Notes: generated by a model not told the origin, from the sequence alone. A DNA stretch of 64,000 nucleotides from an uncultured Clostridia bacterium (GCA_947624105.1 CANQIX010000001.1:1866-65865); one strand, 5' to 3'; positions 2,918 to 33,238 are shown, counted from the stretch's first letter. Translations and numbers: made by a program.

Positions 2918-3171
2918 AAAAAATAAAAAATAAATAACTATTTAATTTTAGAAAAATTATTAAAAAATATTAAAAAATACATATTTTTATTATTTTTTAT
3001 GCGTATTTTCGGTATTTTCGCCTATTTTTTTAATTTTTTATTATTTTTTATTTTATTTTTTCTGTATATATGATTGTATTATTATATAATAATTATTTAT
3101 AATAAATATAGTGATTTATTTTGAAATTGTTTTTCTTTGTGATAAAATATGAAGTAAGTAGTGAGGTGTTC
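2918..3171. promoter_or_regulatory. extremely AT-rich divergent intergenic/promoter region with phased A- and T-tracts
   Basis: Tandem TATTAAAAAA x2 (2958-2977), tandem GTATTTTCG x2 (3003-3020), and T6-7 tracts at roughly helical spacing (3024-3060). TATAAT hexamers at 3085-3090 and 3098-3103. GAGGTG SD at 3163-3168. Confidence 0.35.
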
Positions 3172-6100
3172 ATGAAAAACTTAAGTTTGAAATCATTATT
3201 CTTAATTTTATTGTCCGCTTGCTTAATGACCTTTGGCATAGTTTCTGTTGACTATCGCTTAGACCATCTTGCATCGGCAGAAACACAAATAGTCGAAACA
3301 GTAGACAGAAGTCCAGACCTTCCAAGTTATTTTTCTGCTGTCGAATACACAAACGACAACGCTGTATCAACCGCCAGCCTGATTGACAGCAACTACTTTA
3401 TGTTTAACACCACTTCACAAAACTACCTTGAACTGTCTTTCAAAACTAACGGAAAAGATATTCTGGATAAAAAGCAACTTCCTTTTGATGATGTTTACCA
3501 ATACGTTTATTTTGAAAACGAAAACGATCTATCTAGTTTTAAATATTTTGAATATACAAACATCGACATAAGTGTCAATGGCGAAGGCTTGACTCTTCCA
3601 GAATCAACCTACAAGTTTTACGCTCCATCTAACCAAGAGTTTTCAAACGCCACAAACCAACCTGAAGTTTTTAGAATTAGATTTAACTACAGCGGAACTA
3701 ACAGCGAATGGAGCGATACTTACGGTGCTGGCGTTTCAAATGCAATAAGTTTGATAAACGAAAGGAACACCGTTATCGAAGGGCTTTACACCATCACAGT
3801 TAATTACATCGAATTTACTTGCACGCAAGACAACGTCTCTCAAGAGGATTTGACTTTCAACGCTCTTGAACCTGCTGAGTCCTTCCACTCGTCTTCTAAG
3901 TCGATTACATATTCCTTCCTTGTTTTGGACGAAAGCAATTACCGCAACAACTCTAGACCAATTATCACCGGAAACGACTTCTTGTCGACAATCTCAATTT
4001 CCGAAACTGTTTCAAGAGCCTATGGATATTACTACTACAACAACTACTCAACAGCCGACAACTCGATTTCTTCTTTGTCTTACGATGCATCGCGCTATGA
4101 TGTTCGCATAACAAAGACTCTTAACGGACAAGAACGTTCCGCAACTTTGACATACAACTACGAACTAGACACCTACACCTATGCCGGAGAGGATATTGTC
4201 GCCTACACTTACACCTCAACCTCTACATCTGACGGCAAGAACACAAATTGTTCAATCTACTTCTATGACGTTGGTGATTACTCCGTTTTCTTCAACGCAG
4301 TTGCAACCTTTAAAGACGAATCTCAAACCGCAACCGACAATTACACAACCTACAAGATTGCACCTTTAACAAACACTCTTCGTCAAGCGATGGTCTTCAT
4401 ATTTGGATATCAATTAACCTATCTTGACAAAGACCTTGGCGGAACTACTTACACCGAGTTTAAGATTAACAACATCGAAGAAGGCACATACTCCGATTCT
4501 GCAGATATAACTGCAAAGTTTTTGGAAAGCAATCCAAACTATAAGCAAAACAGCAACAATGCATCTGTTGAAGGCGGCAACACATTCCAATTTACAAATA
4601 TCTTACAGTATACTAAAACTGCCCCAGCACCTGTAGTAACCAACCAAACACCTCTTCGCTTTACATCAAACGCAAAACTTTCCACAGTAAGACGTTCCGA
4701 ACTTTACACAACAAACAGCAACTACGGAACAGCATACAACGCTGAAACTTTGACTGTAAATGGCGAAGCAAAACAACTTTACTACACCCCATACACCGGC
4801 GGAACAATCACACAAGACGGAACTTACATCGTTTTACTTGCATACACCTTCTCAAATTATTATTCCGCTTCCAGCGCATCGGCAACCTCAACGATATTCT
4901 ATCAAGTGTTCTACTTCACAATAAACAGCGACACTCCTGACTTAATTTTAACAACCGAAACAACCAAAAGTTCTGTTCCTAAGTATACAAACGAAAACGT
5001 TGTTGTTGTAGATAAAAACATCTTAAACATTCACAACAAAGAACTTGTTATAAGAGTTTATGCACAGAATTTTGACGGCACATACCTCTCTTCTTATGGC
5101 GGAGATTACGGAATTGACTTAAGTCGCCTTGGTAGTTACACCCTAGACAAAGACAACGGTGGTTCGGCAACTTTCACCGAAAACACACACTACACAATAA
5201 GAATCTTCTATAAGTCAAGCATTACAGACAGCGTTTATAACATAAAGTCAAAAGTTCCAAAAGAACTCATTAAGCGCGAAAAGAACTTTACAATTGACAA
5301 GGAAAAGATTGGTGATATTGGTGCAAGAGTTGCAACGGCATCTAACACAACTTCAAACTACATTATTGGCTATGACATTACCCCTGTTGCCACAAACGCT
5401 GCCTTTGTAACTAACCAAAGCATCGTTGTATCTTGGGGGGAAAAAGATAGCCACGCAAACACTTATGCAAAATACCGCTTTGTGCCTATCGTTGAAGAGA
5501 ATTTCTACAAAGACGAACGCGGCAATGATTTAACAGAGGAAGAAGTTTCTGGTGTGCTAGAAAACTATCTTACCTTCTTGTCAAGTTCTTACTTACCTGT
5601 AAATTATCAACTCGATTTCAGCCAGATCTCTCCTACCTGGAATTTGTATCCTGGCAACACTCAAACAATTGGATATACAATCTCCGGCAACTACGTTTTG
5701 AACAACTTAAAACCTGGCCTTTACATCTTTGATTTCTATGATGACGCAAACAACCACTCTTATCAGTTGTTCTTGATTGACACCACAACACCTTTGTTTG
5801 CTACACGTATAAATGGTGTTTTTGAAATATCGCCAAGTTATATGTATATCGACCAAAAAACCGAATTATATTGGGGAAATTACAAGGCAATCGCAATTGG
5901 CGGACTAGACACCTTCTTAGATTTTGACAATGGTTCTATCCGCGATGAAAACGAAACCCTCATCGTTACGCCAGAACAGATTAGCGCCTTTGAATTCTGC
6001 AAGGACCAATTTGGCGAAACAAATGTGGACATATACAAAACATTCTACTACGAATTATACAGCGCATCGGTTAATCCAACTCCACTTTGGCAATATCTTA

Positions 6101-9100
6101 CAGTTAACAGAATCAAACTTAAATTCTTAACAATCAGCACCGGAAAGAGTTTCTGCGCTTTTGATTCGATTTCACAGGAATACACAATCCAGACCTCTAA
6201 CAACGGCAAAAATATGATAACTTATGACACAAACATTGAGTGCACCTACAGATTGTTAATCAAAGATGCCAGCAACACTCAACGCGACCTGTCTAACACA
6301 AATCCTGTCTTCCAATACACCGCTTTTTACAGCGCAATGCAAGTTATCATTGTAAGCCACGACTCTTCTTCTTTGCGATTCTATTACGATGGAAATGGAG
6401 AGGACATTTACCTAACCGGAGATACAACGGTTGCCTATGAAGACAACAAACAGGTTTTAATCACCTATGTTGCTCCAATCAACGTAAACAAAACAATCAA
6501 CTACTCCTATGTTCCTACTCCATCGTCCGAAGGCTCGTTTACAATTCAACTTGAATCTTTGACGGTTGACTACTATGACTTTAGAAAGAACGACCCACCT
6601 GAAGAGGCAACTTCTAAAGGCGTTCAAACTCTTTACAACTATATGACCTTAAGCGGAACACCTCAAAGAAACGAAGTTTATAAATTTGAAGGTTCACATT
6701 CGTCAGTTGTAGAAGTTGACAGCCTGTTTGTTGATGGTGGCGTAACAAAAGACGGCGTGTATATCATAAGAAGAACATATCACGTCGATGATTCCGGAAC
6801 GACAATATATTCCTTCAATGATGACGACTATGTTACAAGAATCTTCGTTATCATAGTCGACAGGCACGATGTTATCGAAGGAGCAAAAACAGTTATCAAT
6901 GGCGATTCCAGACACGCAGAGAGTTTGGTCGGTGGAGAAATCTTCGTTTCGATGTATGACACCGGTTCTAACTCAAACCTTGTTGTAACCTTCCCAGACG
7001 CTCCAACTGGAAACTTGTCAAACACCTCCCTTGTTGGCGGAACGTTTGAAACAAACAAACTTCCTGTATCCGTTTTAATCCCTGCATACAAATATACAAA
7101 ATATGTAACAATTGTTGAAGAAAACGGACGTTACCACTATGAATTGTTTATAAATGACTACAACATTATGGACGCAAACCTTGGTGGCGAAAATAATATA
7201 AAGTCATATAAATTAAACGAAATCGATTCTTACCTTTTATACGCTGAGATATACAAAGACTACGAAACAGCAACACAGCAGTTGCTTTACAAAACCACTA
7301 CATCATTTAATAATCCAACAAACGATAACATAAAAGGCGCTATAAATAACAATGGTAGTAAGAATGGTTATTTCAATTTCTACGATTCAAATAACAACCT
7401 TGTAACAAGTTTGACTCAAGAAGGCAACTACACAGTAATCATCTATCAAGCATACAACTCGATTGCCGAAGTTGATGGCTCAACATTTAAGAGTTCTTCA
7501 AGTTTCTCGTTTACAATCAAAAAGACAGATCCTGACTTCGACCTTAAGGCAAGTGGCGGAAAATCACTTAACTACGAGTCAAATGGTGGCGTTTTAACAT
7601 ACTACACAAACCAAAACGTTATCGATGTTTATTGGGATAAATCCAAAGACGATTATTCAGCAGAAATAGACCAAAACTATGTTTTAGTTTCTGTTAACGG
7701 AGCATTAAGACCTAACATCAACAGTTTAGGTCAGTTGTTCTCTTCACAGATTACTGTAAACAGCACTGCAAATCTATACTCAGCACAACTTAATTTCTCA
7801 AACATCAATGGCGAAGATATCTACAAAAACGGCAACTTTATCGACATCACAATGCGATATACAAATCACAACAGCGCATATTATAACGAAGTTCATAAGC
7901 GCATTATGATTGACACGCAAGCACCTAACGAAGACATCAACGAACTTGTAAGTCAAGTTGTAACAAATTCGGGCGGATATATCACCGAAAAAGATCTAAG
8001 AGTTTACTCAGCAGTTTACACAAACGGACAAGAAAACACAATCGATCCTGAAGTAGACCGCAACTGGCAAGAAAAGACTTGCTTTAACACAAGTAAGTTA
8101 AGCGACACATACAGATACTTCTCGTTTGCAGCAACTAAATCATTTGTAACCGATCACCTACTACATTCTGATGCAAACTTCATATACTATAAAGGTCTTG
8201 AAGCAAGTTATAAATACGCAGCAACCGGATACGAAGTAGATCCTTACGAATTTTCTGCAAGCAATGGTTATACCCTGCTCGATTCAAACACAACCTTTGA
8301 AGTTGGAAGGTATTATGAATTTGTCGAAAGCGATCTTGCCGGCAACCTGACAATTTACACCCTTTACTTCATAGACGACTTAACCGACGAACTAGACAAC
8401 TACACAATCATCGACTATCTTGTAAACGGGCAAACAGAAAATGCAGAAACCGGATTTGTATATGACTACACAAGAGACGACTACATCAGCGCTAAAGCAA
8501 ACGGACTTCTTACAACAATCTACGCAAGACCAACTCTTGATATAACCAGCATCAACTACTTTAAAAACACTTGGTTCATCTTTAGAGCATCAACAACTTC
8601 AACAAGCGGAATCCAAGACACAATCACGTATTACCTTATATCTCCCTGGGTTGAACCTGGAACGGCTTACCGCTTAACAGACAATCAACCAGTAAGCTTG
8701 ATGGATATAATAAACGGAAACACCGACAGCACTTGGAAGGATAGTTTAACTTTCCTCAACACCTACTATGGTGCAACCGAAAGAACAACCTCCCTTTACT
8801 TCAACACAAGAGTTGATTCAATCAAGGGTTCTACCACCCCATCAAATACCGAAGATATCGTCTTCTCGCAACCAACACTTGCAGAACTAAACAACACAGC
8901 ATCGGCAAGAACATTCTTAACAAAACTTAAGATTTATCTTCCAGATGCACGTATCGATGAAGTTGGCAGCGAAAGCAACCCATTCTTCGACGTATCTAAC
9001 CCACTTGGAGTTGAAGCGCTTTGGAGAAATAGCAACTACACTTACGTTAATATAAACGTATCAAACAGACAGATTATCTTCACACTCAACTATGAACTTG

Positions 9101-11697
9101 CGAAAGATACAAAGATTGTCTATGAATATGTAGATAACTACGGAAACTTCAATCACGAAATTCATCGATATGACGAAACTTACATCGCAGAGCCAGTAAG
9201 TTCCGAAAACGTGATGTATTCCTTCAACTATAACGATGGAGATGGAAGAAAATTATACTACATCACAGAAGATGGCTTTAGATACACTTACAACTCACAA
9301 AAATACTATATCTTAACTTACAAAAAGGCCAATTTGACTCCTGGAAGTGCTTGGGATAACCTCCGTGCAAGTTCGTTAGAGATTGAAACTATTTCGGAAA
9401 ACACAACAACTTCGATAAGAGTCAACACCTATCACGTTCTCAACCCTGGAAACACCTACTCATATCTGCTTAGAATTGATGTTTACGATATTGACGATGT
9501 CGACACAACAACCGGTATTCCTTATGAAGATGTCGTTCCTGTTCAACAAATTTACTTCATTTTAAACAACAACGTTCCAAAAGTTGAAAGAACAAACACC
9601 AACCCACTTGACAACAGTTTTAAATTAACATCTAGTGGAATGAATGTAACAACAAACGTGCTTGGAATAAGAGAAGATGGTTCTCAAGACCCTTCAATGA
9701 AAGTAAATTACTATTCGTCAATCAACTTAAACTACAACATCAGTTCTTCGAATCTGCTTCCTGTAGCCTTCTACTTAAGCAGAGATGGCGGAGATTGGGA
9801 ACAGATTACCAACGGAACAGACATAAGTTGCCCTGAAGATCAAGATTCAATAACTTATTATCTAAAAGTTTGGTATGATATCGATGAGATTACAAACTTA
9901 GGTTATAGAAACACCTTAAACAATGATTACGGCTATATCTTTGAATTTGTCCCAACCTATCAAATTTACTCATTCACTCTTAGTTCTGCTTTGTCAACTG
10001 CTTACTATTTAACTTACACCGACGAAAACGGCGCTACAAGAGTGGTAAATAGAAGCGGACAAACATACTCCATAAGAATTGGTAGCACTGCAACACGTCA
10101 ATACGCAAATCACTACATTATCAACTGCAACTACGATCTTAGAGAAGACCGTATGGATATTGTTACAAACACCGAGCAATACATAACTTGGGAAGAAACA
10201 GACTACTATGACGACGACAGAGATAAAAATGTAAGAACATACATCTACACAATCTCCAACCTTGATTATGCAGAAACGGCAACAAACATATCAAGATTCT
10301 CAACAGTTATTGCAGTTACGTTTGTTCCACCAACAAACGCAATTGTGGGAAGTTTCTACACAACCAGCCAAGCAACTTGGTCGCTTAACACAAACTATAA
10401 CCTCGTTGAACGCACATCGCACAGCATAATTATTCCAGCCGGCTCATCGAGAGATTTCGTTGAACTTAGATGGACAAGATATTATGCTATTTCGCAGAAC
10501 ACCATCAACATCAAACTTATTAAGAACGGAGTTGAATTATCTCCAACCGTGTTTACAGAAGGTGATTTCCTTTACACTTACTTAACACGCTCCGGCGTAT
10601 ATACAATTTCGTTTGAAGATGTTTCTGGAAACAAGGAAGTGTTCTGTGCAGGCACAGCAACTCAAACAGAAAACTTCTCGTATGTGTTTATAAAAGATAT
10701 AGCGTTCTACTTAACTTACACAAATCCACTCACTGAGGAACTTACAACCACCGAACCTATTAAACAAGCGGTTTATAATGGCGAAGTAACCCTCACACTT
10801 GACACAAACTTACTTAACTATTACCTCAACAGAGCAGTTGAACTTGCTATTACAAAAGATGGAAAAGAATATACATTAAGCAATTCAAACATCAACGTAA
10901 ACGAAAGAAGTTACACCTTTACCGAAACCGGAGTTTACACCGTTACATTCACTGCAAAGTCGAATGAAGAAGATGACACCGACCTTCGTTCCGAAACTTA
11001 CACCTTCACAATTCTCGACCCAGACGAATATCGCTCGTCATATATAGTAAACAAATATTCAAGTTACTACATTCAATCGATATTCAAGAACAATGTCGAT
11101 GTAACCTCACTTCTCACATCTTCGCTTGCACTTGATAAAATTGTTGTAAATTCTCAAGTATATCTTGCAGAACTTACCCTCTCCTACCTAGACGAGAGAA
11201 CCGGAAGTGGCACTTACTACATCACAGTAAATAGCAACGAAAAACTCTACTCAAGCGATTCACTTATGTCAAGTTGGACGTTTAAAGTTATTATCAAAGT
11301 TGGAAAACTTGACCTAATCACTTCAAGCGTAGAACCTGGCGGAGAAGTAACCGGAACATTTACAATTTCGTTTAACGCAGCAAACGTTTACAACGAATTT
11401 GGTAAAGGTAAAGTGAGAGTAATCTACTACGATGACGACAATGCTATGCACCTATCCTACGAATATGACATCGACGATACGACAACCGAAGTGCAAAACC
11501 CAGAAGCATTTGATGCCGGCCACACCTACTTCGTTCAAATCGTTTCAGAAAGTGGAAAACTGTTATACAGTTTCAAAGTTACAGCAAAAACTCCACTCAA
11601 TGCAGCAGCGATTATCATAATTGTAATTGCAGTTTTGCTTGTAATTGCAATCATTGTAATAGTTGTAATTCTTAGAAAACGTATCACAGTTAAGTAA
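3172..11697 (+). CDS. giant (2,841-aa) surface protein: N-terminal signal/lipobox-like peptide, tandem Ig-like (PKD/HYR-type) modules, C-terminal TM anchor
   Basis: The ORF is uninterrupted. I prefer ATG 3172 (GAGGTG upstream; the product starts MKNLSLKSLFLILLSAC…) over the track's TTG 3121. A strand-pair motif recurs: G-x-Y-x-[IV]-x-[IVF]…D-x-x-[GN]-N…[FY]-x-[IV]-x-D-x(2,3)-P, for example GLYIFDFYDDANNHSYQLFLIDTTTPLF, GVYTISFEDVSGNKEVF and ESDLAGNLTIYTLYFIDD. The protein ends with a 24-aa hydrophobic helix followed by RKRITVK. Confidence 0.9.
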   Translation: MKNLSLKSLFLILLSACLMTFGIVSVDYRLDHLASAETQIVETVDRSPDLPSYFSAVEYTNDNAVSTASLIDSNYFMFNTTSQNYLELSFKTNGKDILDKKQLPFDDVYQYVYFENENDLSSFKYFEYTNIDISVNGEGLTLPESTYKFYAPSNQEFSNATNQPEVFRIRFNYSGTNSEWSDTYGAGVSNAISLINERNTVIEGLYTITVNYIEFTCTQDNVSQEDLTFNALEPAESFHSSSKSITYSFLVLDESNYRNNSRPIITGNDFLSTISISETVSRAYGYYYYNNYSTADNSISSLSYDASRYDVRITKTLNGQERSATLTYNYELDTYTYAGEDIVAYTYTSTSTSDGKNTNCSIYFYDVGDYSVFFNAVATFKDESQTATDNYTTYKIAPLTNTLRQAMVFIFGYQLTYLDKDLGGTTYTEFKINNIEEGTYSDSADITAKFLESNPNYKQNSNNASVEGGNTFQFTNILQYTKTAPAPVVTNQTPLRFTSNAKLSTVRRSELYTTNSNYGTAYNAETLTVNGEAKQLYYTPYTGGTITQDGTYIVLLAYTFSNYYSASSASATSTIFYQVFYFTINSDTPDLILTTETTKSSVPKYTNENVVVVDKNILNIHNKELVIRVYAQNFDGTYLSSYGGDYGIDLSRLGSYTLDKDNGGSATFTENTHYTIRIFYKSSITDSVYNIKSKVPKELIKREKNFTIDKEKIGDIGARVATASNTTSNYIIGYDITPVATNAAFVTNQSIVVSWGEKDSHANTYAKYRFVPIVEENFYKDERGNDLTEEEVSGVLENYLTFLSSSYLPVNYQLDFSQISPTWNLYPGNTQTIGYTISGNYVLNNLKPGLYIFDFYDDANNHSYQLFLIDTTTPLFATRINGVFEISPSYMYIDQKTELYWGNYKAIAIGGLDTFLDFDNGSIRDENETLIVTPEQISAFEFCKDQFGETNVDIYKTFYYELYSASVNPTPLWQYLTVNRIKLKFLTISTGKSFCAFDSISQEYTIQTSNNGKNMITYDTNIECTYRLLIKDASNTQRDLSNTNPVFQYTAFYSAMQVIIVSHDSSSLRFYYDGNGEDIYLTGDTTVAYEDNKQVLITYVAPINVNKTINYSYVPTPSSEGSFTIQLESLTVDYYDFRKNDPPEEATSKGVQTLYNYMTLSGTPQRNEVYKFEGSHSSVVEVDSLFVDGGVTKDGVYIIRRTYHVDDSGTTIYSFNDDDYVTRIFVIIVDRHDVIEGAKTVINGDSRHAESLVGGEIFVSMYDTGSNSNLVVTFPDAPTGNLSNTSLVGGTFETNKLPVSVLIPAYKYTKYVTIVEENGRYHYELFINDYNIMDANLGGENNIKSYKLNEIDSYLLYAEIYKDYETATQQLLYKTTTSFNNPTNDNIKGAINNNGSKNGYFNFYDSNNNLVTSLTQEGNYTVIIYQAYNSIAEVDGSTFKSSSSFSFTIKKTDPDFDLKASGGKSLNYESNGGVLTYYTNQNVIDVYWDKSKDDYSAEIDQNYVLVSVNGALRPNINSLGQLFSSQITVNSTANLYSAQLNFSNINGEDIYKNGNFIDITMRYTNHNSAYYNEVHKRIMIDTQAPNEDINELVSQVVTNSGGYITEKDLRVYSAVYTNGQENTIDPEVDRNWQEKTCFNTSKLSDTYRYFSFAATKSFVTDHLLHSDANFIYYKGLEASYKYAATGYEVDPYEFSASNGYTLLDSNTTFEVGRYYEFVESDLAGNLTIYTLYFIDDLTDELDNYTIIDYLVNGQTENAETGFVYDYTRDDYISAKANGLLTTIYARPTLDITSINYFKNTWFIFRASTTSTSGIQDTITYYLISPWVEPGTAYRLTDNQPVSLMDIINGNTDSTWKDSLTFLNTYYGATERTTSLYFNTRVDSIKGSTTPSNTEDIVFSQPTLAELNNTASARTFLTKLKIYLPDARIDEVGSESNPFFDVSNPLGVEALWRNSNYTYVNINVSNRQIIFTLNYELAKDTKIVYEYVDNYGNFNHEIHRYDETYIAEPVSSENVMYSFNYNDGDGRKLYYITEDGFRYTYNSQKYYILTYKKANLTPGSAWDNLRASSLEIETISENTTTSIRVNTYHVLNPGNTYSYLLRIDVYDIDDVDTTTGIPYEDVVPVQQIYFILNNNVPKVERTNTNPLDNSFKLTSSGMNVTTNVLGIREDGSQDPSMKVNYYSSINLNYNISSSNLLPVAFYLSRDGGDWEQITNGTDISCPEDQDSITYYLKVWYDIDEITNLGYRNTLNNDYGYIFEFVPTYQIYSFTLSSALSTAYYLTYTDENGATRVVNRSGQTYSIRIGSTATRQYANHYIINCNYDLREDRMDIVTNTEQYITWEETDYYDDDRDKNVRTYIYTISNLDYAETATNISRFSTVIAVTFVPPTNAIVGSFYTTSQATWSLNTNYNLVERTSHSIIIPAGSSRDFVELRWTRYYAISQNTINIKLIKNGVELSPTVFTEGDFLYTYLTRSGVYTISFEDVSGNKEVFCAGTATQTENFSYVFIKDIAFYLTYTNPLTEELTTTEPIKQAVYNGEVTLTLDTNLLNYYLNRAVELAITKDGKEYTLSNSNINVNERSYTFTETGVYTVTFTAKSNEEDDTDLRSETYTFTILDPDEYRSSYIVNKYSSYYIQSIFKNNVDVTSLLTSSLALDKIVVNSQVYLAELTLSYLDERTGSGTYYITVNSNEKLYSSDSLMSSWTFKVIIKVGKLDLITSSVEPGGEVTGTFTISFNAANVYNEFGKGKVRVIYYDDDNAMHLSYEYDIDDTTTEVQNPEAFDAGHTYFVQIVSESGKLLYSFKVTAKTPLNAAAIIIIVIAVLLVIAIIVIVVILRKRITVK
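11602..11673 (+). other. C-terminal transmembrane anchor of the 2,841-aa protein
   Basis: AAAIIIIVIAVLLVIAIIVIVVIL followed by RKRITVK-stop. No LPXTG upstream. Confidence 0.8.
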
Positions 11698-12152: not shown

Positions 12153-12182
12153 AAAAAAACTATCGACTTGCGATAGTTTTTT
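12153..12182 (-). terminator. rho-independent terminator of the 1,450-aa gene (symmetrical, could act on both strands)
   Basis: ACTATCG-ACTTG-CGATAGT hairpin (12159-12177) flanked by A7 and T5. It begins 8 nt past the stop at 12190-12192. Confidence 0.75.
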
Positions 12183-12189
12183 AACAATT

Positions 12190-15100
12190 TTACACTGATT
12201 TTTTAAGTTCCTTATCAAGTTTAACTTTTGATACTACGAAGTAGATGATAACACCTGCAAGGAGTAGAACAGAAATTACGATAAGAATTGTTCCAATGAT
12301 TTGGTAAACAAGATCTGGGTTTACTTCATTTGGATTAACAGTAACAACAACTGTTTCGTCTTGATAGTTTCCGTTGTTGTCATATACTCTTACTGTAAGA
12401 GTGTATGTTCCTTCACCCTTTTCGCTTATGTCATAAGTAAGAACTTTTGCATCTTTGTCTGGAACATCAGAGTCAACTGCTGCTTCGATTGGGTCTTCTT
12501 CACCATCTTTTGTGAGGGTGTATTCAACCTTTTCGATTCCTTCAGCATCGCTGAATTTGAAGTTTTCAACATAGAACTTAAGTCCATCTTTAACATCGTC
12601 AAGTGTAAGTGAAGATGCAGAAACGTCAGCCTTGCTCTTGCCTGCTTGGTAAGAGATAAGAGGTTTTACGTTATCGCCAACAGCAATTTCTTTTGAATAT
12701 GTTGAGTAGTTACCTGCGTTGTCGTAAACTTTGTAAGTGATAACAATTGTTCCGTTTCTCTTATAAGTAACTTCTTTTCCGGTAAGTTTTTCATCGCCAG
12801 TAAGAGTTGCTGTTGATGTTCTTGTCTTTCCGTCTTCATAGTATGTCAATACTGCTGTAACCTCTGACTCTGTGATATTGAGGTCGCTTGCGTCGGTTGC
12901 TCTAATTCCATAGATGAAGAGTTTGTATCCATCTCCTTCAAGGTCTTTAGCAGAGATTGAATCGATGTAGTCATAAGGAGCAATTGTTGGTCCTAACTTA
13001 TCTTGAACTTTGATTGTGTAGTTGCCACTTTCAAGGTCGTAAGAGATAAGTGATTCTGCAAACAATTTTGTTGCTGCGGCTTTTGTAAATGACTCTGTAA
13101 AATCAGATTCGCTGTTAAATGTAGCAACTTTATCTGCAACTGTAACAGATATTGTCTTGCTTACTGTAGGTTCTTCGCTTGGATTTTCTACAATGTAGAT
13201 TGTATATTTTTCAGCGCTTTCTTTCTTAATTCTAACTGTTTCGTCAGCCGCAACTTGGAAGTAGTTAAATTTGAATGCCTCGCTAGATTGTTCGTAAGTT
13301 CCGCCAACATATTCTACAACTGTGTTATCATAAACTGTGAGGTTAACGTGATATTTGAAGTTGTAGTTGCCTACTCTTTCTGGAACGAATGAAGATTCTT
13401 GTCCGTTTTCTATTGAGTAGTCATTTGCGTATCCTTCGCCGTTAACACCCATAACAACATATTTTGGTTTTTGTGAACCTTCCCAGTTGGTTACTGACTT
13501 GTATGTTTCGTAATCAATTGAGTTGTCGATTGTGTAGTTAACCTTTGGTGTAGGAAGTTTGATAACTGGTTTGTTGTCAAGTTCAAGTGCAGTTCCATCT
13601 TGAGCCTCTGGAATTGTTACACTGATTGTTGGGTCTTGAACAAGGAACAATGGTTTTGCTTCATAGTGCAAGAATACAACGATTGTGTTGTTTGAACTGT
13701 CTGTGATTGCAACTGATACAAGGTATTGTCCTTCAAATGGTGCAATGAATGAACCAGCATCAAGGGTATAAGTGTATTCTCTTGCATTCCAAGATTGTTT
13801 TGCGTCAGCAGCAGCGCCCTTAAGAGCGTCTTGTCTTTCGCCATTTTTAAGTGGGTAAACTTTGATTTCATAAGATACCTTTGTTACAAGGTCGTCTTTG
13901 ATTGTGATTGTTGGAAGTTCAATTTTGTCGTGTTGATAGTATGTAACATCTTCACTACCATCTGCAAATTCAACGCTAGAGAATGTAGGAACTCCTGTGT
14001 CAATAGCGGTTGAAATCTTGAACTCTTTAACTAAAATATCAATGTTTCCTGAGCCATCATAAGCATAAGCAAGGATTTGAACACCGGTTACTTGCATTGT
14101 TTGTAAATCATATTTTGCTAAGTCGATTGTGTAAGAAGACAATGTGTCGTCTGTTAAATCGATGTAACCTGCGCCCTTGTAAGCAGCATATTTTGTTGTG
14201 TATGCAACTCCGTTGCTGTCGTTTACTTCTGGTGCTCTGTTTTCGATTAAGTATTCAACGATGTCTGTTGAATTAAAACCGTTTTCAACTGTGTTTTCTT
14301 CTTTATCTGTGATTGCACCTGTTACAGCGCCTTCAGCAGTCATAAATCTGAAATAAGTCTTAACTTTCTTAGCCATAATTGAATTGCTGTCTTCGTTGTC
14401 GGTTGCGCCTGGCTTTGTGAATGTAACCTTATCTGTTGTGAGATAAGAGTTTTCTAATGTTGTAGAGAAAGTGATTACTGGAGCAACTTCGTCATAACCA
14501 GTAGAAACTTCTATTGAGTATGATTTGTAGTCGCTGTTTCCAGCCTCATCACCAGCCCAATATTGAACTGTGAATGTTGCAAGCCCATAGCCTTTTGAAC
14601 TATCTCTTTCACCAAATGTTTTGCTTGATGGAATGTAAGCGAAACCTAATGCTGCGATTTCTGCTTCTGTCTTTCCTTCTAAGTAGGTGATAAGAGCGTC
14701 GCCGTCAGCAACTCCTGCAAATTTGTCTGTAAACAAACTAAGGATTGTTGATGCGTTTGACTTGTCAATTACAACACGATATCCGTTTTTAAGGAACCAT
14801 TCAAGCATTGCCGCATCAGAGGTGATTTCCTCTTCTTGAGCAGCAAGTTTTTGACGAACTTCAAAGTTGTTATCAATGAAGTTTTGGTATGCTGATGCTG
14901 AAGAAGAAGCAGATGTTGCATTGTTGTAGTTGAATACAAGGTTGTAAGCATCATAGCCTTCGATTGTAAACAATTCTTCGCTATCTCTAAGAACGATTCT
15001 CTTTACGTCAACCTTTCCTCTCTCAGAAACGTTATCTTCTGCTGTGATAGCGTATAAAACAACGCCATTAGCATAAACGTGAGAAGAAAGTTTTGTTGTA

Positions 15101-16542
15101 GCATCTTCATAAGTTGGAACTTGTTGGTCATCAACAAGAGTTGTTTCTGCAGCATCATATAATACTGGAGTTGGTGCTTTTACATCTTCAAGATTTTCCC
15201 AACCATAACGTCCATCACTTGTTGTGATTGTGTTTCTGTAGAAATCAGTTGCAGTATAGATTATTGTGTATGTTCCTCTTTGAAGTGGAGTAAATTTTGT
15301 TTCGTCAATTAAATAGCCGTTTTCGTCTAATACGTCTGCATAGATTTTCTTGCCATTTACTTCAACGTCTTTGATGTCTTTCCAGCCAGAAGTTTTGTCT
15401 GACATATACTTAACAGAAACTTTGTAGTATACGTCAACAGCGGCTCCGTTTGGTGTAACCTTTGAATTTGTTGTTACGGTAACGCCTGGAAGAGTCTGCT
15501 CTTCGCCGATGTTAACATCTTTTCTAAGAGAACTTGATGTCTCTATAACAAGGTTGTCCTTGCTGTATTCATTATAATATGAATCGTAAACTGTTGTTTT
15601 AAGTATTTCACTCTTAACAAACTCGCCTTCGTGGTAGTAAGCATATTTGATTGCAAATTCAACATAGTTGTGATATGTTTTGAATGCTTCGCCATCGATA
15701 ACCACAGATTTTCCATCTGCAGAGAGTTTTAAGTATTGTGTATCTCCGTCAACCAAACTTGCAGCACCGGCATTTCCTGTGATAACAAGGCAGTCGCCTG
15801 TTGCATACTCGCTTGCTTGAGTTGAAGATGTTTTAACAACTAATTTAGCATCTTCGACTTCTTTTCCGTCTTGGTTAAGAATCTTTGGAAGTGGAAGGGT
15901 AACATCTTCGTAAGTTGTTGTTTCGCCTTCTGTTTTTCCATACAAACTTAAGTCAATTATCTTTGGAAGGAAGTGTTCATTGTTTCCAGTTAAATCAAGT
16001 GTAGCCGAGTTGATTGTGCTTTCAACAACAAAGTCATAGTAGTTTGTATAAACATTCTTTGTATCACTGTCAAAGTAGTAAGAGTAAGAGTATGTGATTG
16101 TGTATCTACCAACGTTTTCAGCAACAAATTCACCGTAGTAGTCTGGGTAGAGAGCAGAATCGGTCCCGCTTTGATATTCCTTAACAGAACCTTCTTTAAG
16201 TTCTGCGCCACCATAGTAAACCTTTACGGAAGAACTGTCAAAATTAACGGTTTTTCCAGATGCAGATGCTGTAGAAAGGGTTCTTCCTATTGCATAACTA
16301 GAATTTCCGCCAACATAGGCAAGCATAATTTTGTATGCATCACCTGCGTAAACAGTTTTGGCTGGCGATATGATTGAACTTGACGCCTTTTTACCAATTT
16401 GGATATAAGAATAGTCTATATAGTCTACTCCAGTCTTTGCAGCAGCAAGCAATGGCGAAACTGGCATAACTAGAAATACAAACAAGAATGCACACAAGAA
16501 TGCAATAAGTTTGTTAACAAATTTCTTTTTAGTTAGTTTCAT
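12190..16542 (-). CDS. large (1,450-aa) surface protein: signal peptide, tandem HYR/DUF5011/PKD-like Ig modules, C-terminal TM anchor
   Basis: AGGAGA SD 6 nt upstream of ATG 16542. N-terminus MKLTKKKFVNKLIAFLCAFLFVFLVMPVSPLLAAAK. Module boundaries recur as D-x-x-x-P-x-[IF] (DVKAPTPV, DEVAPVITF, DTGVPTFSS, DKLGPTIAP, DNVKPLISY), together with [AT]-x-D-x-x-G-N strands (WAGDEAGNSDY, VYDNAGNYS, VYDNNGNYQ, AYDGSGNID). The C-terminus is a 25-aa helix followed by SKVKLDKELKKSV. Confidence 0.9.
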   Translation of the reverse strand: MKLTKKKFVNKLIAFLCAFLFVFLVMPVSPLLAAAKTGVDYIDYSYIQIGKKASSSIISPAKTVYAGDAYKIMLAYVGGNSSYAIGRTLSTASASGKTVNFDSSSVKVYYGGAELKEGSVKEYQSGTDSALYPDYYGEFVAENVGRYTITYSYSYYFDSDTKNVYTNYYDFVVESTINSATLDLTGNNEHFLPKIIDLSLYGKTEGETTTYEDVTLPLPKILNQDGKEVEDAKLVVKTSSTQASEYATGDCLVITGNAGAASLVDGDTQYLKLSADGKSVVIDGEAFKTYHNYVEFAIKYAYYHEGEFVKSEILKTTVYDSYYNEYSKDNLVIETSSSLRKDVNIGEEQTLPGVTVTTNSKVTPNGAAVDVYYKVSVKYMSDKTSGWKDIKDVEVNGKKIYADVLDENGYLIDETKFTPLQRGTYTIIYTATDFYRNTITTSDGRYGWENLEDVKAPTPVLYDAAETTLVDDQQVPTYEDATTKLSSHVYANGVVLYAITAEDNVSERGKVDVKRIVLRDSEELFTIEGYDAYNLVFNYNNATSASSSASAYQNFIDNNFEVRQKLAAQEEEITSDAAMLEWFLKNGYRVVIDKSNASTILSLFTDKFAGVADGDALITYLEGKTEAEIAALGFAYIPSSKTFGERDSSKGYGLATFTVQYWAGDEAGNSDYKSYSIEVSTGYDEVAPVITFSTTLENSYLTTDKVTFTKPGATDNEDSNSIMAKKVKTYFRFMTAEGAVTGAITDKEENTVENGFNSTDIVEYLIENRAPEVNDSNGVAYTTKYAAYKGAGYIDLTDDTLSSYTIDLAKYDLQTMQVTGVQILAYAYDGSGNIDILVKEFKISTAIDTGVPTFSSVEFADGSEDVTYYQHDKIELPTITIKDDLVTKVSYEIKVYPLKNGERQDALKGAAADAKQSWNAREYTYTLDAGSFIAPFEGQYLVSVAITDSSNNTIVVFLHYEAKPLFLVQDPTISVTIPEAQDGTALELDNKPVIKLPTPKVNYTIDNSIDYETYKSVTNWEGSQKPKYVVMGVNGEGYANDYSIENGQESSFVPERVGNYNFKYHVNLTVYDNTVVEYVGGTYEQSSEAFKFNYFQVAADETVRIKKESAEKYTIYIVENPSEEPTVSKTISVTVADKVATFNSESDFTESFTKAAATKLFAESLISYDLESGNYTIKVQDKLGPTIAPYDYIDSISAKDLEGDGYKLFIYGIRATDASDLNITESEVTAVLTYYEDGKTRTSTATLTGDEKLTGKEVTYKRNGTIVITYKVYDNAGNYSTYSKEIAVGDNVKPLISYQAGKSKADVSASSLTLDDVKDGLKFYVENFKFSDAEGIEKVEYTLTKDGEEDPIEAAVDSDVPDKDAKVLTYDISEKGEGTYTLTVRVYDNNGNYQDETVVVTVNPNEVNPDLVYQIIGTILIVISVLLLAGVIIYFVVSKVKLDKELKKSV
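12232..12306 (-). other. C-terminal transmembrane anchor of the 1,450-aa protein
   Basis: YQIIGTILIVISVLLLAGVIIYFVV followed by a basic 13-aa tail. No LPXTG. Confidence 0.8.
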
Positions 16543-16690
16543 ATAGTTTCTCCTAATTTTTTGAGGTGATTACCTCTGGTTTTCTTTTAAGAACTATTGC
16601 GTCTAATTTGTTTAGACTTTTCTATTTTGTGTGTGAATAGGTTTCCTATACGCACATAAAATTACTTTTAATGTCGAATTTGTTCAAATT
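16543..16690 (-). promoter_or_regulatory. structured 148-nt rplA-to-giant-gene spacer without an intrinsic terminator
   Basis: On the minus-strand RNA there are three hairpins: an imperfect GUGCGUAUAGG-AAA-CCUAUUCACAC (16631-16655), GUCUAA-ACAA-UUAGAC (16601-16616) and GAGGU-AAUC-ACCUC (16563-16576). None is followed by a U-tract. The AGGAGA SD is at 16549-16554. Confidence 0.35.
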
Positions 16691-17382: not shown

Positions 17383-17808
17383 TTAGTCTACAACTTCAAC
17401 GCCCATACTTCTTGCAGCACCAGCGATCATGCTCATAGCACTTTCGATTGATGTGCAGTTAAGGTCTGGCATCTTTGTTTCAGCAATTTTTCTAATTTGC
17501 TCTTTAGTGATTTTTCCGACTTTTTGTTTGTTTGGTTTTCCTGATGCAGTTTCAATTCCTATTGCTTTTTTAATAAGCACTGCTGCAGGTGGAGTTTTCA
17601 TTACAAATGTAAAACTTCTATCTTCATAGATAGTGATTACAACTGGAATGATCATTCCTTCTTGAGAAGCGGTCTTCTCGTTAAATTCTTTGGTAAAACC
17701 AGCGATGTTGATCCCGTGAGGTCCAAGTGAAGAACCTACTGGTGGTCCTGGAGTGGCTTTACCTGCTGGAAGTTGTAACTTCACAACTGATTTGATTTTC
17801 TTTGCCAT
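17383..17808 (-). CDS. rplK: 50S ribosomal protein L11
   Basis: 141-aa ORF with [25 protein letters not shown], the canonical L11 N-terminal motif. Confidence 0.95.
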
Positions 17809-18850: not shown

Positions 18851-19012
18851 TTACTTTGTTTCTTTATGAGTAGTTCTCTTATTGCATTTTTTGCAATATT
18901 TCTTTGTTTCTATTCTTTCTGGATTTGAAGTTGTGTTCTTTTCAGTAGAATAGTTTCTATTCTTGCATTCTGTGCATTCAAGTGTAATAATCTTGCGTTT
19001 TGGTGCAGCCAT
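18851..19012 (-). CDS. rpmG: 50S ribosomal protein L33 (below the ORF-track size cut-off)
   Basis: My own translation: [53 protein letters not shown] (53 aa). It has the CxxC…CxxC zinc ribbon typical of L33. AGGAGA lies 8 nt upstream of the ATG, and the gene is just upstream of secE. Confidence 0.9.
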
Positions 19013-19062: not shown

Positions 19063-19091
19063 ATAATACCATACACCCGTCTATAAGTCAA
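19063..19091 (-). promoter_or_regulatory. candidate sigma-A promoter of the rpmG-secE-nusG-rplKA unit
   Basis: Minus strand: TTGACT (19086-19091), 17 nt, TGgTATTAT (TATTAT 19063-19068). About 50 nt upstream of rpmG. Confidence 0.5.
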
Positions 19092-19276: not shown

Positions 19277-20143
19277 TTAAAGTGATACGCCGTCTTGATT
19301 TTGCTTAGCAAGTTCTCTTGCTTCTTTGTCGTCAAGTTTCTTCTCGTTCTTCTTGAATAATTTACGTTCAAGTTTTTCGTCTTCTTTGATTTCTTCCATT
19401 GTTTCTCTTCTTGCATTTACTGCTTCTCTAAGAGTGGAAATCTTGCCTTTTACATTTCCAACGTTAACTTGAATAACAACTCTTGATTCAGAAACATCAC
19501 TTAAAAGTGGGTCGCCACTTATTCCATATCTAATTTCTGCAGAAAGTAGTTTTTCATATTCTTTTGGATCATCAGCGTTCTTCTTGTCATACTTAACTGC
19601 GCCGGTGTCAGAAATCTTTACTTGGATTGTGTCGAATGATCTTAAAGTTTTTCTAACTTCTTCTTTTATCTCTTCGTCATAGGTCTTTAATGCTGCTTGA
19701 AGGTTTGGATCTGACAAATCGGTAAATGTTGAGCAATCAACTTTGTGATTTGCAAGCACCTTTTTTCTTTCCTTTACAACTATTGCACGAGCAAATTCGT
19801 CGAGGAAGGTTTCAGCATCTTGCTTAAAGCCGTGTCTACGCAAAGTTGAAACTGGCATTCTTACAGAGTAGTGAACTGGCTCTGTGATAACCTCTTTCTG
19901 TCTTTTTCTTTCCACAGTAACTGGTTCTACAACAAATTGAGATTTGTTTCCTGCTCTAAGGTCTTTAAGCATTGCAATCTGTGGCAAGTTGAAATAATCT
20001 TTTCTTTCAACAACAGAAGTTGCATCAACTGGATATCTTAAAGAGTAAGTTCTTGGTTCGTCTTTAAAATCGTCGATAGTAACTGTTGAATATTTTTTCT
20101 CCAAAGATTTTGCTACTTTTCTTATTAAAGCATCTCTTTCCAT
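19277..20143 (-). CDS. hypothetical 288-aa cytoplasmic protein with highly charged C-terminal helix
   Basis: ORF with GGAGG SD 7 nt upstream of ATG 20143. It has its own promoter and terminator. No signal peptide and no family recognised. C-terminus: …RRETMEEIKEDEKLERKLFKKNEKKLDDKEARELAKQ…. Confidence 0.7.
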   Translation of the reverse strand: MERDALIRKVAKSLEKKYSTVTIDDFKDEPRTYSLRYPVDATSVVERKDYFNLPQIAMLKDLRAGNKSQFVVEPVTVERKRQKEVITEPVHYSVRMPVSTLRRHGFKQDAETFLDEFARAIVVKERKKVLANHKVDCSTFTDLSDPNLQAALKTYDEEIKEEVRKTLRSFDTIQVKISDTGAVKYDKKNADDPKEYEKLLSAEIRYGISGDPLLSDVSESRVVIQVNVGNVKGKISTLREAVNARRETMEEIKEDEKLERKLFKKNEKKLDDKEARELAKQNQDGVSL

Positions 20144-20261: not shown

Positions 20262-20289
20262 TAAAAAAATGCAACACGGGGCTGCATTT
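20262..20289 (-). terminator. rho-independent terminator after the HicB-like gene
   Basis: Minus-strand RNA AAAUGCAGCCCCGUGUUGCAUUUUUUUAU: an AAAUGCA/UGCAUUU stem followed by a U-run. It overlaps the stop codon at 20289-20291. Confidence 0.6.
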
Positions 20290-20564
20290 TATTTTTCCAT
20301 AATAACTTCTGCATCAACAAGCATAACTCTTTCGTTGCTTTTGCACTTTGGAGCAAGTTTTTCTAATTTGGTTGGCTTGTTGTATTCTGATTCATATTTA
20401 AGTGCATAAGACATATAAACTCTTAACAAATCTTTTGCATAAAGGTAGGCGTCTGACAAGTTTTTCCCATCTGTGTAAATATCTAAGTCTGGAAAAATAA
20501 CCTGATAAGAATCGTCCTCATCTCTCACAAAAATTGCTGGGTAAACAAACAAATATTTCTTCAT
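20289..20564 (-). CDS. HicB-like (UPF0150) antitoxin-fold protein, stand-alone, no DNA-binding tail
   Basis: 91-aa ORF with GGAGATAAT SD. The N-terminus YPAIFVRDEDDSYQVIFPDLDIYTDGKNLSDAYLYAKDLL matches the [YF]-P-[AV]-x-[FI]-x(3)-[DE]-x(2)-Y-x-[VA]-x-[FV]-P-D-[LF] pattern of HicB N-terminal domains. Confidence 0.65.
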   Translation of the reverse strand: MKKYLFVYPAIFVRDEDDSYQVIFPDLDIYTDGKNLSDAYLYAKDLLRVYMSYALKYESEYNKPTKLEKLAPKCKSNERVMLVDAEVIMEK

Positions 20565-23728: not shown

Positions 23729-24106
23729 TTACTCCTTTACGCTAAATTTAGTTCCAACCAAACGTTTTAGTTTTTCGATATCTCTATCCATCTTTTGGTC
23801 TTTGCTATCTTCCTTTTCAATCACAAGTTCAAGATTTAGCCCCTGCCAACGAATTGCGTTTTCAAGGTCCTTTCGTCCATCTTCAAGCAAGCAAATTAAA
23901 AAGTCATCGCTGTTTCTTATTATCAGTTTGTTGTTTTCAAGCACAACATCGCTTATATCTCCACAAGCAACGTGCAATGCGATAAGTTTGTTCTCTCGAA
24001 GATACAAAACTATCTTTCCCCACACGTTTTTTGAAGTGAGTTGTGTGCTATTTGCCTCAATTTTCAGTTTTTTTTTACGTCTTCTCCGCTTAAAGCAGTA
24101 AGGCAA
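23729..24106 (-). CDS. dnaX: C-terminal (tau-type) segment of DnaX lying in the -1 frame; not an independent gene
   Basis: This ORF overlaps the dnaX 3' end by 43 nt and has no credible start or SD of its own. From L14 onward the translation ([52 protein letters not shown]…[19 protein letters not shown]) resembles the C-terminal domain of Firmicute tau. Confidence 0.65.
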
Positions 24107-25161
24107 GTTGTTTCAAGCAGCAACCTCACTGACAAGGTGTAGCGAAGTTCGTTTTCCGCACCAGAAAAGACTTGCATATACCTAATGAGGTCCTTTTGGT
24201 CAAATGCGTCTGCTTGCGCTTTGTATCTTGCATATATATCGTCTGGCAGATTCAAAATTTCGTTTGAATCGTCGCAACTTTTTGCAATCAAAAGATCTCT
24301 TGCGTGCTTTGAAATATCCTTTGCAAACACAGCAAGGTTCTTCCCTTCCTTTTCAATCTTATCGATAAGCGACAAGATTCCACCGATTTCTTTCTCTCTA
24401 AGTTTTTCAAAGAAGTCAAGCATAAGTTCAAAATCTGTCATTCCTAAGATTGAAAGAGTGTCTTCTTTGGTTATCTTTCCTTGGCAATATGCCGCGATCG
24501 AATCGGCAATTGAAAGGGTATCCCTCACACTTCCCTCGCCGGCAGTTGCAATAAGTTTTAAACTCTCTTCGTCATACGAAATGTTCTCTTTGTCAAACAC
24601 CATCTTAAGATGCTTTACAAGGGTGTTTACTGGAACTAAGTGGAAGTCAAACCGAACGCACCTAGAAAGGATTGTTTGAGGAAGTTTGTGAACTTCGGTT
24701 GTCGCTAAGATGAATATGATATGCTCTGGAGGCTCTTCCAGTGTTTTTAAAAGCGCGTTAAAAGCTGGAGTGGAAAGCATATGCACTTCGTCAATTATAT
24801 ACACCTTATATTTTACACCAACCGGAGTAAACTTAACTTTTTCTCTTATCTCTCTAACGTCATCGACGGTGTTGTTTGATGCCGCGTCCATTTCGATGAC
24901 ATTGATATCGCTCTCTTTTTGAAGTAACTTACAACTTTCACATTCATTACAAGGCGAACCGTTTTTTGGAGAGAGGCAGTTAACAGCGCGTGCAAAAATT
25001 TTTGCCACACTTGTTTTGCCCGTTCCACGTGTGCCAGTAAAAAGATATGCGTGCCCAATATGATTGTTTTGAATTTGGTTTTGAAGGGTGTGAGTGATAT
25101 GCTCTTGCCCGATAACCTCATCAAACGTTCTAGGCCTATACTTTCTGTAAAGCGACTCCAT
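24064..25161 (-). CDS. dnaX: DNA polymerase III subunit gamma/tau, 0-frame product (domains I-III, 365 aa)
   Basis: Walker A GTRGTGKTS, a zinc module (CLSPKNGSPCNECESC), LLKTLEEPPEH and the SRC motif are all present in the translation. Confidence 0.95.
   Translation of the reverse strand: MESLYRKYRPRTFDEVIGQEHITHTLQNQIQNNHIGHAYLFTGTRGTGKTSVAKIFARAVNCLSPKNGSPCNECESCKLLQKESDINVIEMDAASNNTVDDVREIREKVKFTPVGVKYKVYIIDEVHMLSTPAFNALLKTLEEPPEHIIFILATTEVHKLPQTILSRCVRFDFHLVPVNTLVKHLKMVFDKENISYDEESLKLIATAGEGSVRDTLSIADSIAAYCQGKITKEDTLSILGMTDFELMLDFFEKLREKEIGGILSLIDKIEKEGKNLAVFAKDISKHARDLLIAKSCDDSNEILNLPDDIYARYKAQADAFDQKDLIRYMQVFSGAENELRYTLSVRLLLETTCLTALSGEDVKKN
24068..24076 (-). promoter_or_regulatory. 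A9 slippery run at the dnaX frame junction (candidate recoding site or homopolymer error)
   Basis: Minus strand AGC GGA GAA GAC GUA AAA AAA AAC UGA. There are nine consecutive A, the 0-frame stop comes one codon later, and a GGAG lies 7 nt 5' of the run. Confidence 0.5.
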
Positions 25162-32874: not shown

Positions 32875-33180
32875 CTATTTCCGCAAAAACGTGATACAAC
32901 AAGGCTTGCTTTTTAGGTCGTTAAGTGTTATTCCGTTCGCCTTGCAATCGCGGTCGACATTAAAAAGGCAGTGCGCACAACACTCTATGCCAATCGTTTT
33001 GCTATCGCGTTGAGGAGCATACTTTGGCGGTTCGTCGAACATATTTTTTGTTCTGTCCACCGTTTTGTTGCCCTTAACAAATTTTTTGCAGACCGCCTTA
33101 TCGCTAACTTCGATTCGTTTCGCCTTACACGTATAGCGGTCATTAAATTCGCAATTTGTCTTTCTACATCTAATATCCAT
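32875..33180 (-). CDS. Cys-rich protein with two DUF1540-like modules
   Basis: I prefer ATG 33180 (GAGGTG SD) over the track start 33216. IRCRKTNCEFNDRYTCKAKRIEVSDKAVCKKF and IECCAHCLFNVDRDCKANGITLNDLKSKPCCITF both follow the C-x(3)-C-x-[FY]-N-x(4)-C-x-A-x(2)-I…C-x-[TK]-F pattern of DUF1540. Confidence 0.7.
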   Translation of the reverse strand: MDIRCRKTNCEFNDRYTCKAKRIEVSDKAVCKKFVKGNKTVDRTKNMFDEPPKYAPQRDSKTIGIECCAHCLFNVDRDCKANGITLNDLKSKPCCITFLRK

Positions 33181-33209
33181 ACACACCTCGCGTATATTAT
33201 TTCCAAAAG

Positions 33210-33238
33210 TTGACAAATAAAACGGAATAATATAAAAT
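33210..33238 (+). promoter_or_regulatory. candidate sigma-A promoter of rplI
   Basis: TTGACA (33210-33215), 17 nt, TAAAAT (33233-33238). GAGGAG SD at 33245-33250. Confidence 0.5.

Follow-up and report, generated by a model that had tools for sequence, protein, structure and literature searches.

Giant genes for predicted surface proteins follow rplA, where rplJ-rplL is expected, in a clade of uncultured gut Clostridia

In mycobacteria, genes for mycolic-acid methyltransferases lie between rplA and rplJ. Breaks of the rplKAJL-rpoBC string at this same point are also known from Bradyrhizobium diazoefficiens and Actinomyces israelii (bioRxiv 10.1101/2025.04.14.645983). In these known breaks rplK-rplA stay with secE-nusG, unrelated genes follow rplA, and rplJ-rplL lie elsewhere with a promoter of their own. 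Here we describe a break between rplA and rplJ in a stretch of 64,000 nucleotides (nt) from an uncultured Clostridia bacterium (the whole 64-kb stretch is hereafter the window), in which the gene after rplA encodes a predicted surface protein of 1,450 amino acids (aa) and is followed by a second, convergent giant gene. The window is like the known breaks in the retention of rplK-rplA next to secE-nusG and in the unrelated genes after rplA. It differs from them in that the break has become fixed in a large clade of Clostridia, that the occupants are giant surface-protein genes, and that rplJ-rplL lie more than 10 kb away (they were not found in the 64 kb) and are uncoupled from rpoBC in related metagenome-assembled genomes (MAGs). 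Taken as a whole, the explanation we consider likely combines an old split of rplKA from rplJL, an abundant surface protein, an autonomous transcription unit that encodes it, and deletions in the window.

Gene order after rplA in the window and in related genomes

The genes and signals at the junction were as follows.

18851-19012, minus strand: rpmG (ribosomal protein L33), 53 aa; Pfam Ribosomal_L33 matched the identical gene in the related locus L001
18472-18837, minus strand: secE; PF00584 and TIGR00964
17921-18460, minus strand: nusG; TIGR00922, 166.6 bits, above cutoff
17383-17808, minus strand: rplK (L11); TIGR01632, 203.7 bits
16691-17371, minus strand: rplA (L1); TIGR01169, 327.2 bits
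16543-16690, minus strand: spacer of 148 nt from rplA to the surface-protein gene; compared with 29 orthologous spacers
16550-16554, minus strand: Shine-Dalgarno sequence AGGAG, 7 nt 5' of the ATG and kept in relatives; read from the sequence
12190-16542, minus strand: surface-protein gene, 1,450 aa; translation, AlphaFold2, Foldseek and codon bias
12154-12182, minus strand: intrinsic terminator 3' of the surface-protein gene, a 12-bp hairpin with a U-run; RNA fold
3172-11697, plus strand: convergent giant surface-protein gene, 2,841 aa from the first ATG at 3172 (open reading frame, ORF, 3121-11697); signal peptide and C-terminal membrane helix

NCBIfam equivalog matches above cutoff for rplA, rplK, nusG and secE placed rplK and rplA side by side with secE-nusG before them. 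Together with the Pfam matches, they bear out a preliminary description of this DNA in which rpmG-secE-nusG-rplK-rplA was intact on the minus strand; its coordinates for the surface-protein gene, the 148-nt distance from rplA and the shared strand were also correct, as was a terminator followed by a convergent 2,841-aa gene. A 101-nt stretch with the terminator folds at -20.4 kcal/mol (z = -4.2), and because an A-run and a U-run stand on either side of the hairpin, it possibly acts in both directions. The convergent 2,841-aa protein had no Pfam match.

Immediately 3' of rplA in the window rplJ-rplL were not found, the next gene being the 1,450-aa ORF. Across the 64 kb, L10 and L7/L12 were found neither by Pfam on all ORFs of at least 100 aa, nor by phmmer with the E. 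coli L10 and L7/L12 as queries, nor by tblastn with the L10 and L12 of relatives (E ≤ 10), as the preliminary description had claimed. The spacers of the window and of the related locus L012 gave no Rfam match to an L10 leader RNA between rplA and the next gene, at the gathering threshold or at E ≤ 10, and none of the other Rfam families tried there was a credible match.

An L1-query scan of one genome per GTDB species yielded 80 loci from uncultured Clostridia that go under the names Christensenella, Catabacter or 'Ca. Caccovivens'. In GTDB, Caccovivens is placed in family UBA1242 of the order Christensenellales (PMC8035907), and the window lineage is close to this family. Three arrangements were seen. 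In group A (29 of the 80 loci, L1 80-88% identical to that of the window), rplA is followed by a co-directional ortholog of 1,367-1,555 aa and then by the convergent giant, so that group A comprises at least 29 species plus the window. In group B (22/80, L1 72-80% identical), zero to four small genes separate rplA from the convergent giant and the 1,450-aa ortholog is absent; the convergent giant is thus kept after rplA in both groups. In group C (12/80) rplJ-rplL are still downstream of rplA, and in eight of the 12 they are separated from it by one to four unrelated genes. The other loci with enough downstream sequence had different genes after rplA, and the 3' flank of rplA is a rearrangement hot spot in this order. 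In a neighbor-joining tree built on NusG, L11 and L1, group A with the window formed a single clade, group B the next branches out, and group C was basal.

Individual species carried other genes directly after rplA. One had a full-length cas9 with REC, HNH, RuvC and PI domains (L065:3003-7202), another queH and a signal peptidase gene, lepB (L040), and a third a DUF2207 gene (L023). This last locus is nested inside group A and looks like a secondary replacement.

In related genomes rplJ-rplL persist as a separate pair. Two group-B genomes have the pair on the other strand from rplA, some 5.4 kb upstream. When that L10, from relative L051, was used as a query and five matches were looked up, all five near-relative matches were stand-alone rplJ-rplL pairs and none was followed by rpoB; the contexts were prfA...rplJL-ddh-dapB or ftsH-x-rplJL...spoIIAA-spoIIAB-sigF. 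None of the five came from a group-A MAG, the identity bands only suggesting near relatives, so these pairs are not assignable to the window lineage. In the lineage of the window rplJ-rplL are uncoupled from rplK-rplA, and in related MAGs from rpoBC as well.

The abrupt end of the canonical string at rplA in the window could by itself suggest a recent insertion of both giants between rplA and rplJ in this one genome, for example by horizontal transfer. This we consider highly improbable: orthologs of both are found at the same places in 29 species with an L1 only 80-88% identical, the orthologs themselves have diverged to 31-44% identity, the clade that carries them is monophyletic, the GC content is constant across the rplA/surface-gene junction, and the codon usage of the surface-protein gene is like that of the host's ribosomal-protein genes. 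The preliminary description had offered relocation of the L10 and L7/L12 genes or insertion of the two giants; the uncoupling of rplJ-rplL in the lineage stands, and a notable, possibly recent insertion does not, given the 29-species clade with the same order. An assembly chimera at about 16.5-16.7 kb, which nothing beyond the unexpected gene order would favor, has a vanishingly small probability. An identical L1 was present on eight metagenome contigs, assembled independently from eight different sequencing runs or assemblies, each with the same downstream gene after a 148-nt gap and the longer ones with the convergent giant too; the same junction in eight independent assemblies excludes a chimeric contig, and a further 33 loci from other species had the same order as the window. 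The rplA/rplJ break is an old, clade-wide trait, neither recent nor an assembly artefact.

The simplest history consistent with the tree would have three steps. The link between rplA and rplJ would have loosened long ago; rplJ-rplL would then have left, and the convergent giant (~2,800-3,000 aa) would have settled after rplA in the common ancestor of the large clade; finally, in the ancestor of group A, a gene of the 1,450-aa type would have arrived between rplA and the giant.

The predicted surface protein and its family

The N-terminus of the 1,450-aa protein (MKLTKKKFVNKLIAFLCAFLFVFLVMPVSPLLAAAK) reads as a signal peptide of about aa 1-35, and its last 38 residues (YQIIGTILIVISVLLLAGVIIYFVV then SKVKLDKELKKSV) as a membrane helix with a basic, lysine-rich tail.

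aa 1413-1437, nt 12232-12306, minus strand: C-terminal membrane helix; translation and AlphaFold2

AlphaFold2 modelled both the signal-peptide and the C-terminal stretches as helices, in keeping with the signal peptide and transmembrane tail of the preliminary description. The models of the two protein halves (pLDDT 73 and 80) were almost entirely beta-strand, with roughly a dozen beta-sandwich (immunoglobulin (Ig)/cadherin-like) domains, one helical insert at about aa 550-632 and the long C-terminal helix. When these models were compared with the PDB by Foldseek, the top matches were the Sap S-layer protein of Bacillus anthracis, protocadherins and cadherins, SraP, SbsB and EA1, with a probability of 0.9-1.0 for cadherin, S-layer, FN3 and Ig arrays. 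By sequence, no relative was found in the PDB. The models indicate that the body of the protein would be a generic Ig/cadherin-like surface array.

No Pfam domain scored above threshold in the protein. Membership in HYR (PF02494; E = 4.1, 8.2 bits against a cutoff of 21.7) was rejected, and DUF5011 (PF16403) had no match even at E ≤ 10. Of the earlier label 'HYR/DUF5011-like multi-Ig', the multi-Ig part is upheld at the level of fold and the two named families fall away for lack of HMM support. The last domain gave sub-threshold matches to Big_13 (PF19077; 18.6 bits, cutoff 27) and Big_3_2 (PF12245; 16.9 bits, cutoff 23.3), and a few family members carry a precomputed PF19077 annotation.

A word-indexed search gave 23 hits to the family; an exhaustive phmmer run against 1.84 billion representatives gave 97 clusters at 50% identity, of which about 75 are full-length and collinear. 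No name for the family was found in any source, and by these searches it appears confined to Christensenellales-like gut Clostridia. The orthologs in group A are only 31-44% identical to each other, against 80-88% for L1. Across the family the ectodomains are 24-44% identical, against a nearly invariant membrane helix and tail, YF[VI]VSKVKLDKELKK (window 12193-12306; C-termini of P0001-P0216). This invariant tail hints at a conserved partner or a sorting step. An LPXTG motif was not found before the C-terminal hydrophobic segment (C-terminus ...NPNEVNPDLVYQIIGTILIV...).

To estimate expression, codon usage was scored against a reference set of ribosomal and glycolytic genes. The surface-protein gene had a score, similar to the codon adaptation index (CAI), of 0.716, within the range of the reference genes (0.69-0.78) and above those of the other two giant genes in the window (0.61-0.64) and of housekeeping enzymes (0.52-0.62; argS and dnaX 0.59-0.62). 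Four-fold codons ending in G or C are almost completely avoided in the gene, and the ribosomal-like ranking was repeated in 20 relatives. Ribosomal-level codon bias despite rapid evolution makes great abundance at the cell surface the most likely reading, and the protein is possibly S-layer-like. It would be secreted, tethered by its C-terminal membrane helix and fast-evolving.

The closest described proteins are of two kinds. Like the S-layer proteins of Bacillota (B. anthracis Sap and EA1, Geobacillus SbsB), the window protein is modelled as an array of Ig-like beta-sandwiches, its best Foldseek match being Sap (9g93, E = 2.4e-7), and it shares with them rapid divergence, a strong promoter (in its relatives) and strong codon bias. 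Unlike them, it would be anchored by the conserved membrane helix and the tail SKVKLDKELKK in place of a wall-binding domain, and the likeness comes from models with low TM-scores. With giant adhesins (SraP, the Marinomonas ice-binding MpIBP, Bap-type proteins) it has in common a signal peptide and a long chain of beta-sandwiches. It differs from the adhesins in that neither an LPXTG sortase signal nor a type I secretion signal was seen, and in place of near-identical tandem repeats it has domains that have each diverged, with the one helical insert.

The control region upstream of the gene and its possible transcription

Two elements bear on how the gene may be transcribed in the window.

16623-16678, minus strand: conserved element B1; in all 29 group-A spacers and the distant branch of the family, unique in the window
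19063-19091, minus strand: sigma-70-like promoter upstream of rpmG (TTGACT, 17-nt spacer, TATTAT, TG extension); consensus scan with 10/12 matches, a pattern match only

Transcription of rpmG-secE-nusG-rplK-rplA probably starts from the latter. In 24 of the 29 relatives a hairpin with a T-run lies no more than 75 nt past the rplA stop codon; in a further two a hairpin can be seen but its tail is weaker. When the group-A spacers were scanned with TTGAC[AT]-N16-18-TAnAAT, 27/29 had a sigma-70 promoter close to consensus, TTGACT-N17/18-TAAAAT. In the 148-nt spacer of the window neither a hairpin with a T-run nor a match to this promoter pattern was found. The promoter is missing only in the species of the window and in L038, which keeps the terminator, and the species of the window is the only one in which both are missing.

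All 29 group-A spacers contain B1, TTCGACA-n-TAAnAGTG-n-TTTT...G[CT]ATA-N17-CAAAATA. The copy in the window begins 13 nt past the rplA stop codon and reads TTCGACA, AAAAGT..TTTT, GTATA, a 17-nt spacer and CAAAATA. Its TTCGACA (16672-16678) is a perfect match to the reverse complement of TGTCGAA, the core of the Spo0A box (0A box; PMC3485338), and the perfect core was found in 27/29 group-A spacers and 9/11 upstream regions of the distant branch, kept about 130 nt upstream of the start codon in some 40 genomes. B1 was rejected as a structured RNA, the RNAalifold consensus being empty on 30 sequences, and it had no Rfam match. As there is no consensus RNA fold, we treat B1 as a DNA element, putatively a regulatory or promoter element that accompanies the gene family. 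Spo0A may be involved through a putative 0A box. Spo0A promoters with 0A boxes (PMC3485338) resemble B1 in the perfect TGTCGAA core and the A/T flanks; B1, a putative site, differs in that its target is a surface-protein gene rather than a sporulation gene.

In two relatives the AT-rich spacer between rplA and B1 holds a GC-rich insert of 400-550 nt (L024, ~4055-4610; L026, ~4055-4470). The insert carries repeated palindromic units (...GTCATTCTGA...GAAGAATCTCGG...) and looks like a small repeat or mobile element.

In a distant half of the family (24-31% identity; proteins of about 1,320-1,420 aa) the gene stands immediately upstream of rplU-prp-rpmA in the same orientation; this was so for 5/5 proteins looked up and 9/10 informative metagenome loci, two of the loci having two extra genes in between. 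The positions that concern this branch were as follows.

L104-L111, L116, L118, L119, L121, L122, L124, L126, L127 and L129 (for example L109:6001-11368): rplU-type loci
L012:10787-10860 and L104:about 7850-7930: module of B1 and TTGAC[AT]-N17/18-TAnAAT, conserved upstream of both branches

At the rplU locus a terminator follows the surface-protein gene, and the rplU operon comes next with its own promoter, so adjacency there does not mean co-transcription. Upstream of rplU a leader (GTATCCGCATG...AGCGAGTTTGGTTAGAGGAGG; L109:10384-10458 and homologous positions in L104-L126) is conserved; it scored 25 bits against the Rfam L21_leader (gathering score 36, E = 0.005, sub-threshold) and may be a divergent L21 leader. 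The module of B1 and the sigma-70 promoter aligns without gaps between rplA-type and rplU-type loci. Its presence at two loci indicates that the module travels with the gene, and the control region is older and better conserved than the protein. The rplA-type and rplU-type clades are sisters in the protein tree, so that either position may be the ancestral one. Neither an rplU operon nor a distant family member was found within 10 kb of rplA in the 80 genomes. A rule that the family always flanks ribosomal operons was rejected: it fits the two main clades, for the rplU type in 17 of 18 informative loci, but shorter outgroup homologs adjoin uvrBA or transketolase; with these outgroup homologs away from ribosomal operons, the double association with ribosomal-protein operons is suggestive and could be a coincidence.

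In its usual state in group A, the gene would be a self-contained transcription unit: an intrinsic terminator would shut the ribosomal operon after rplA, and beyond it, after the B1 element of about 60 nt, the near-consensus sigma-70 promoter would drive the surface-protein gene. The preliminary description had suggested that the gene may benefit from read-through. For the clade this does not hold, since, as that description had itself named for its refutation, the arrangement is ancestral and widespread and the relatives have the upstream terminator (24/29) and an independent promoter (27/29). In the species of the window, the most parsimonious reading on the tree is that two short, lineage-specific deletions flanking the retained B1 removed the rplA terminator and the sigma-70 promoter. 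Transcription in the window would then probably start from B1, come by read-through from rpmG-secE-nusG-rplK-rplA, or both. With terminator and promoter both missing only there, read-through is plausible in that species alone, as is co-transcription with the ribosomal operon.

A stronger form of this idea makes the surface gene the sixth gene of the rpmG-secE-nusG-rplK-rplA operon, transcribed mainly by read-through, with its synthesis coupled to growth rate. The layout in the window fits an operon (same strand, a gap of 148 nt, no hairpin with a T-run after rplA), both signals that isolate the gene in relatives are gone, and the ribosomal-like codon bias is kept. Set against this, B1 is retained and has a promoter-like layout of two blocks (G[CT]ATA, 17-nt spacer, CAAAATA) that may suffice alone; L038, which lacks the sigma-70 promoter and has the terminator, suggests that B1 can drive the gene alone; and Rho-dependent termination could act before the gene. 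We therefore regard the operon reading as a serious possibility that we lean against. It is unlikely, in our view, that the gene is instead part of the sporulation or stationary-phase programme, with Spo0A acting on the 0A box or a sporulation sigma factor using B1, and does not encode a constitutive vegetative layer. In favor of this, the 0A-box core read as its reverse complement is exactly the invariant TTCGACA, and B1 can be read as G[CT]ATA-N17-CAAAATA or ATA-N16-CATA (sigma-F/G consensus sequences; sigma-E/K elements as quoted in PMC3789822, the companion paper of PMC3485338). Among related contigs spoIIAA-spoIIAB-sigF, a gerA operon and yqfC/yqfD are present, the window has SpoVB-like and SpmA/B-like genes, and members of the clade, or their ancestors, may be spore-formers. 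Against it, nearly all relatives have a strong sigma-70 promoter downstream of B1, and the ribosomal-like codon bias suggests that the gene is strongly expressed during vegetative growth. One 7-mer match is no more than chance would give, the different sigma-factor readings contradict each other, and the SpoVB match is below cutoff.

Several points also weigh against the explanation we favor, of an old split followed by an autonomous unit for an abundant surface protein and by deletions in the window. The rplJ-rplL pairs that were found could not be assigned to the window's own genome. The TM-scores of the Foldseek matches were low (0.1-0.24), as expected of flexible multi-domain chains, so that 'S-layer-like' is only a resemblance, and an SLH or CWB2 wall-binding domain had no Pfam match in the surface protein. 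The codon-bias reference set is small (~1,400 codons), and the preference among Phe and Tyr codons differs between the surface-protein gene and this set. TGTCGAA cores occur in the window at the rate expected by chance (12 observed, 11.2 expected), so only the conservation of the core argues for function. Finally, a weak promoter or Rho-dependent termination could lie in the 148-nt spacer. A bolder version of the favored explanation, which we hold to be doubtful, would make the family the clade's major membrane-anchored S-layer-like protein, with an ancient module of a Spo0A box and tandem promoters, placed beside two ribosomal operons and, in the window, fused to rplKA.

Other genes of the window and significance of the locus

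Further features were seen in the window. One ORF (40076-63880, minus strand), which may run past the end of the window, encodes 7,934 aa or more with Listeria-Bacteroides repeat (Flg_new) domains; it ends in a membrane helix and a basic tail, a tail-anchor design common to all three giant ORFs. Between argS and rpmG lie a gene for a HicB-like antitoxin (20289-20564, minus strand), with no obvious HicA partner seen, and one for a Lys/Glu-rich protein of 288 aa without a family match (19277-20143, minus strand). In other Bacillota the argS-rpmG interval often holds tRNA genes or tuf; no tRNA gene was found anywhere in the 64-kb window. A 199-aa protein resembling the anti-phage protein KwaA (2318-2917, minus strand) was sub-threshold (62.5 bits, cutoff 100), and no KwaB-like neighbor was present. 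The dnaX gene (365 aa; 23729-25161, minus strand) is followed, where the C-terminal part of tau is expected, by an overlapping 125-aa ORF without a Pfam match, and could be split, frameshifted or truncated. There was also an adjacent pair of Gate-domain genes, SpmA/SpmB-like (36449-37520, plus strand), a SpoVB-like flippase gene below cutoff (28444-29976, minus strand) and a gene for a DUF1540 protein (32875-33216, minus strand).

Across a large group of uncultured gut Clostridia the 'universal' rplKAJL string is interrupted. The change of gene order is an ordinary, lineage-wide one with precedents in other phyla, and the gene found after rplA adds one more member to a well-known class, the Ig-repeat surface proteins. 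As by-products, the locus gives a previously unnamed family of probable major surface proteins in a poorly known gut clade, an unusually conserved C-terminal anchor, and a conserved cis-regulatory module with a Spo0A-box core. The loss of the terminator and the main promoter in one species is a natural 'experiment' that could show the capture of a highly expressed gene by a ribosomal operon. If the gene were indeed fused to the rplKA operon there, synthesis of the surface layer would be directly proportional to ribosome synthesis.

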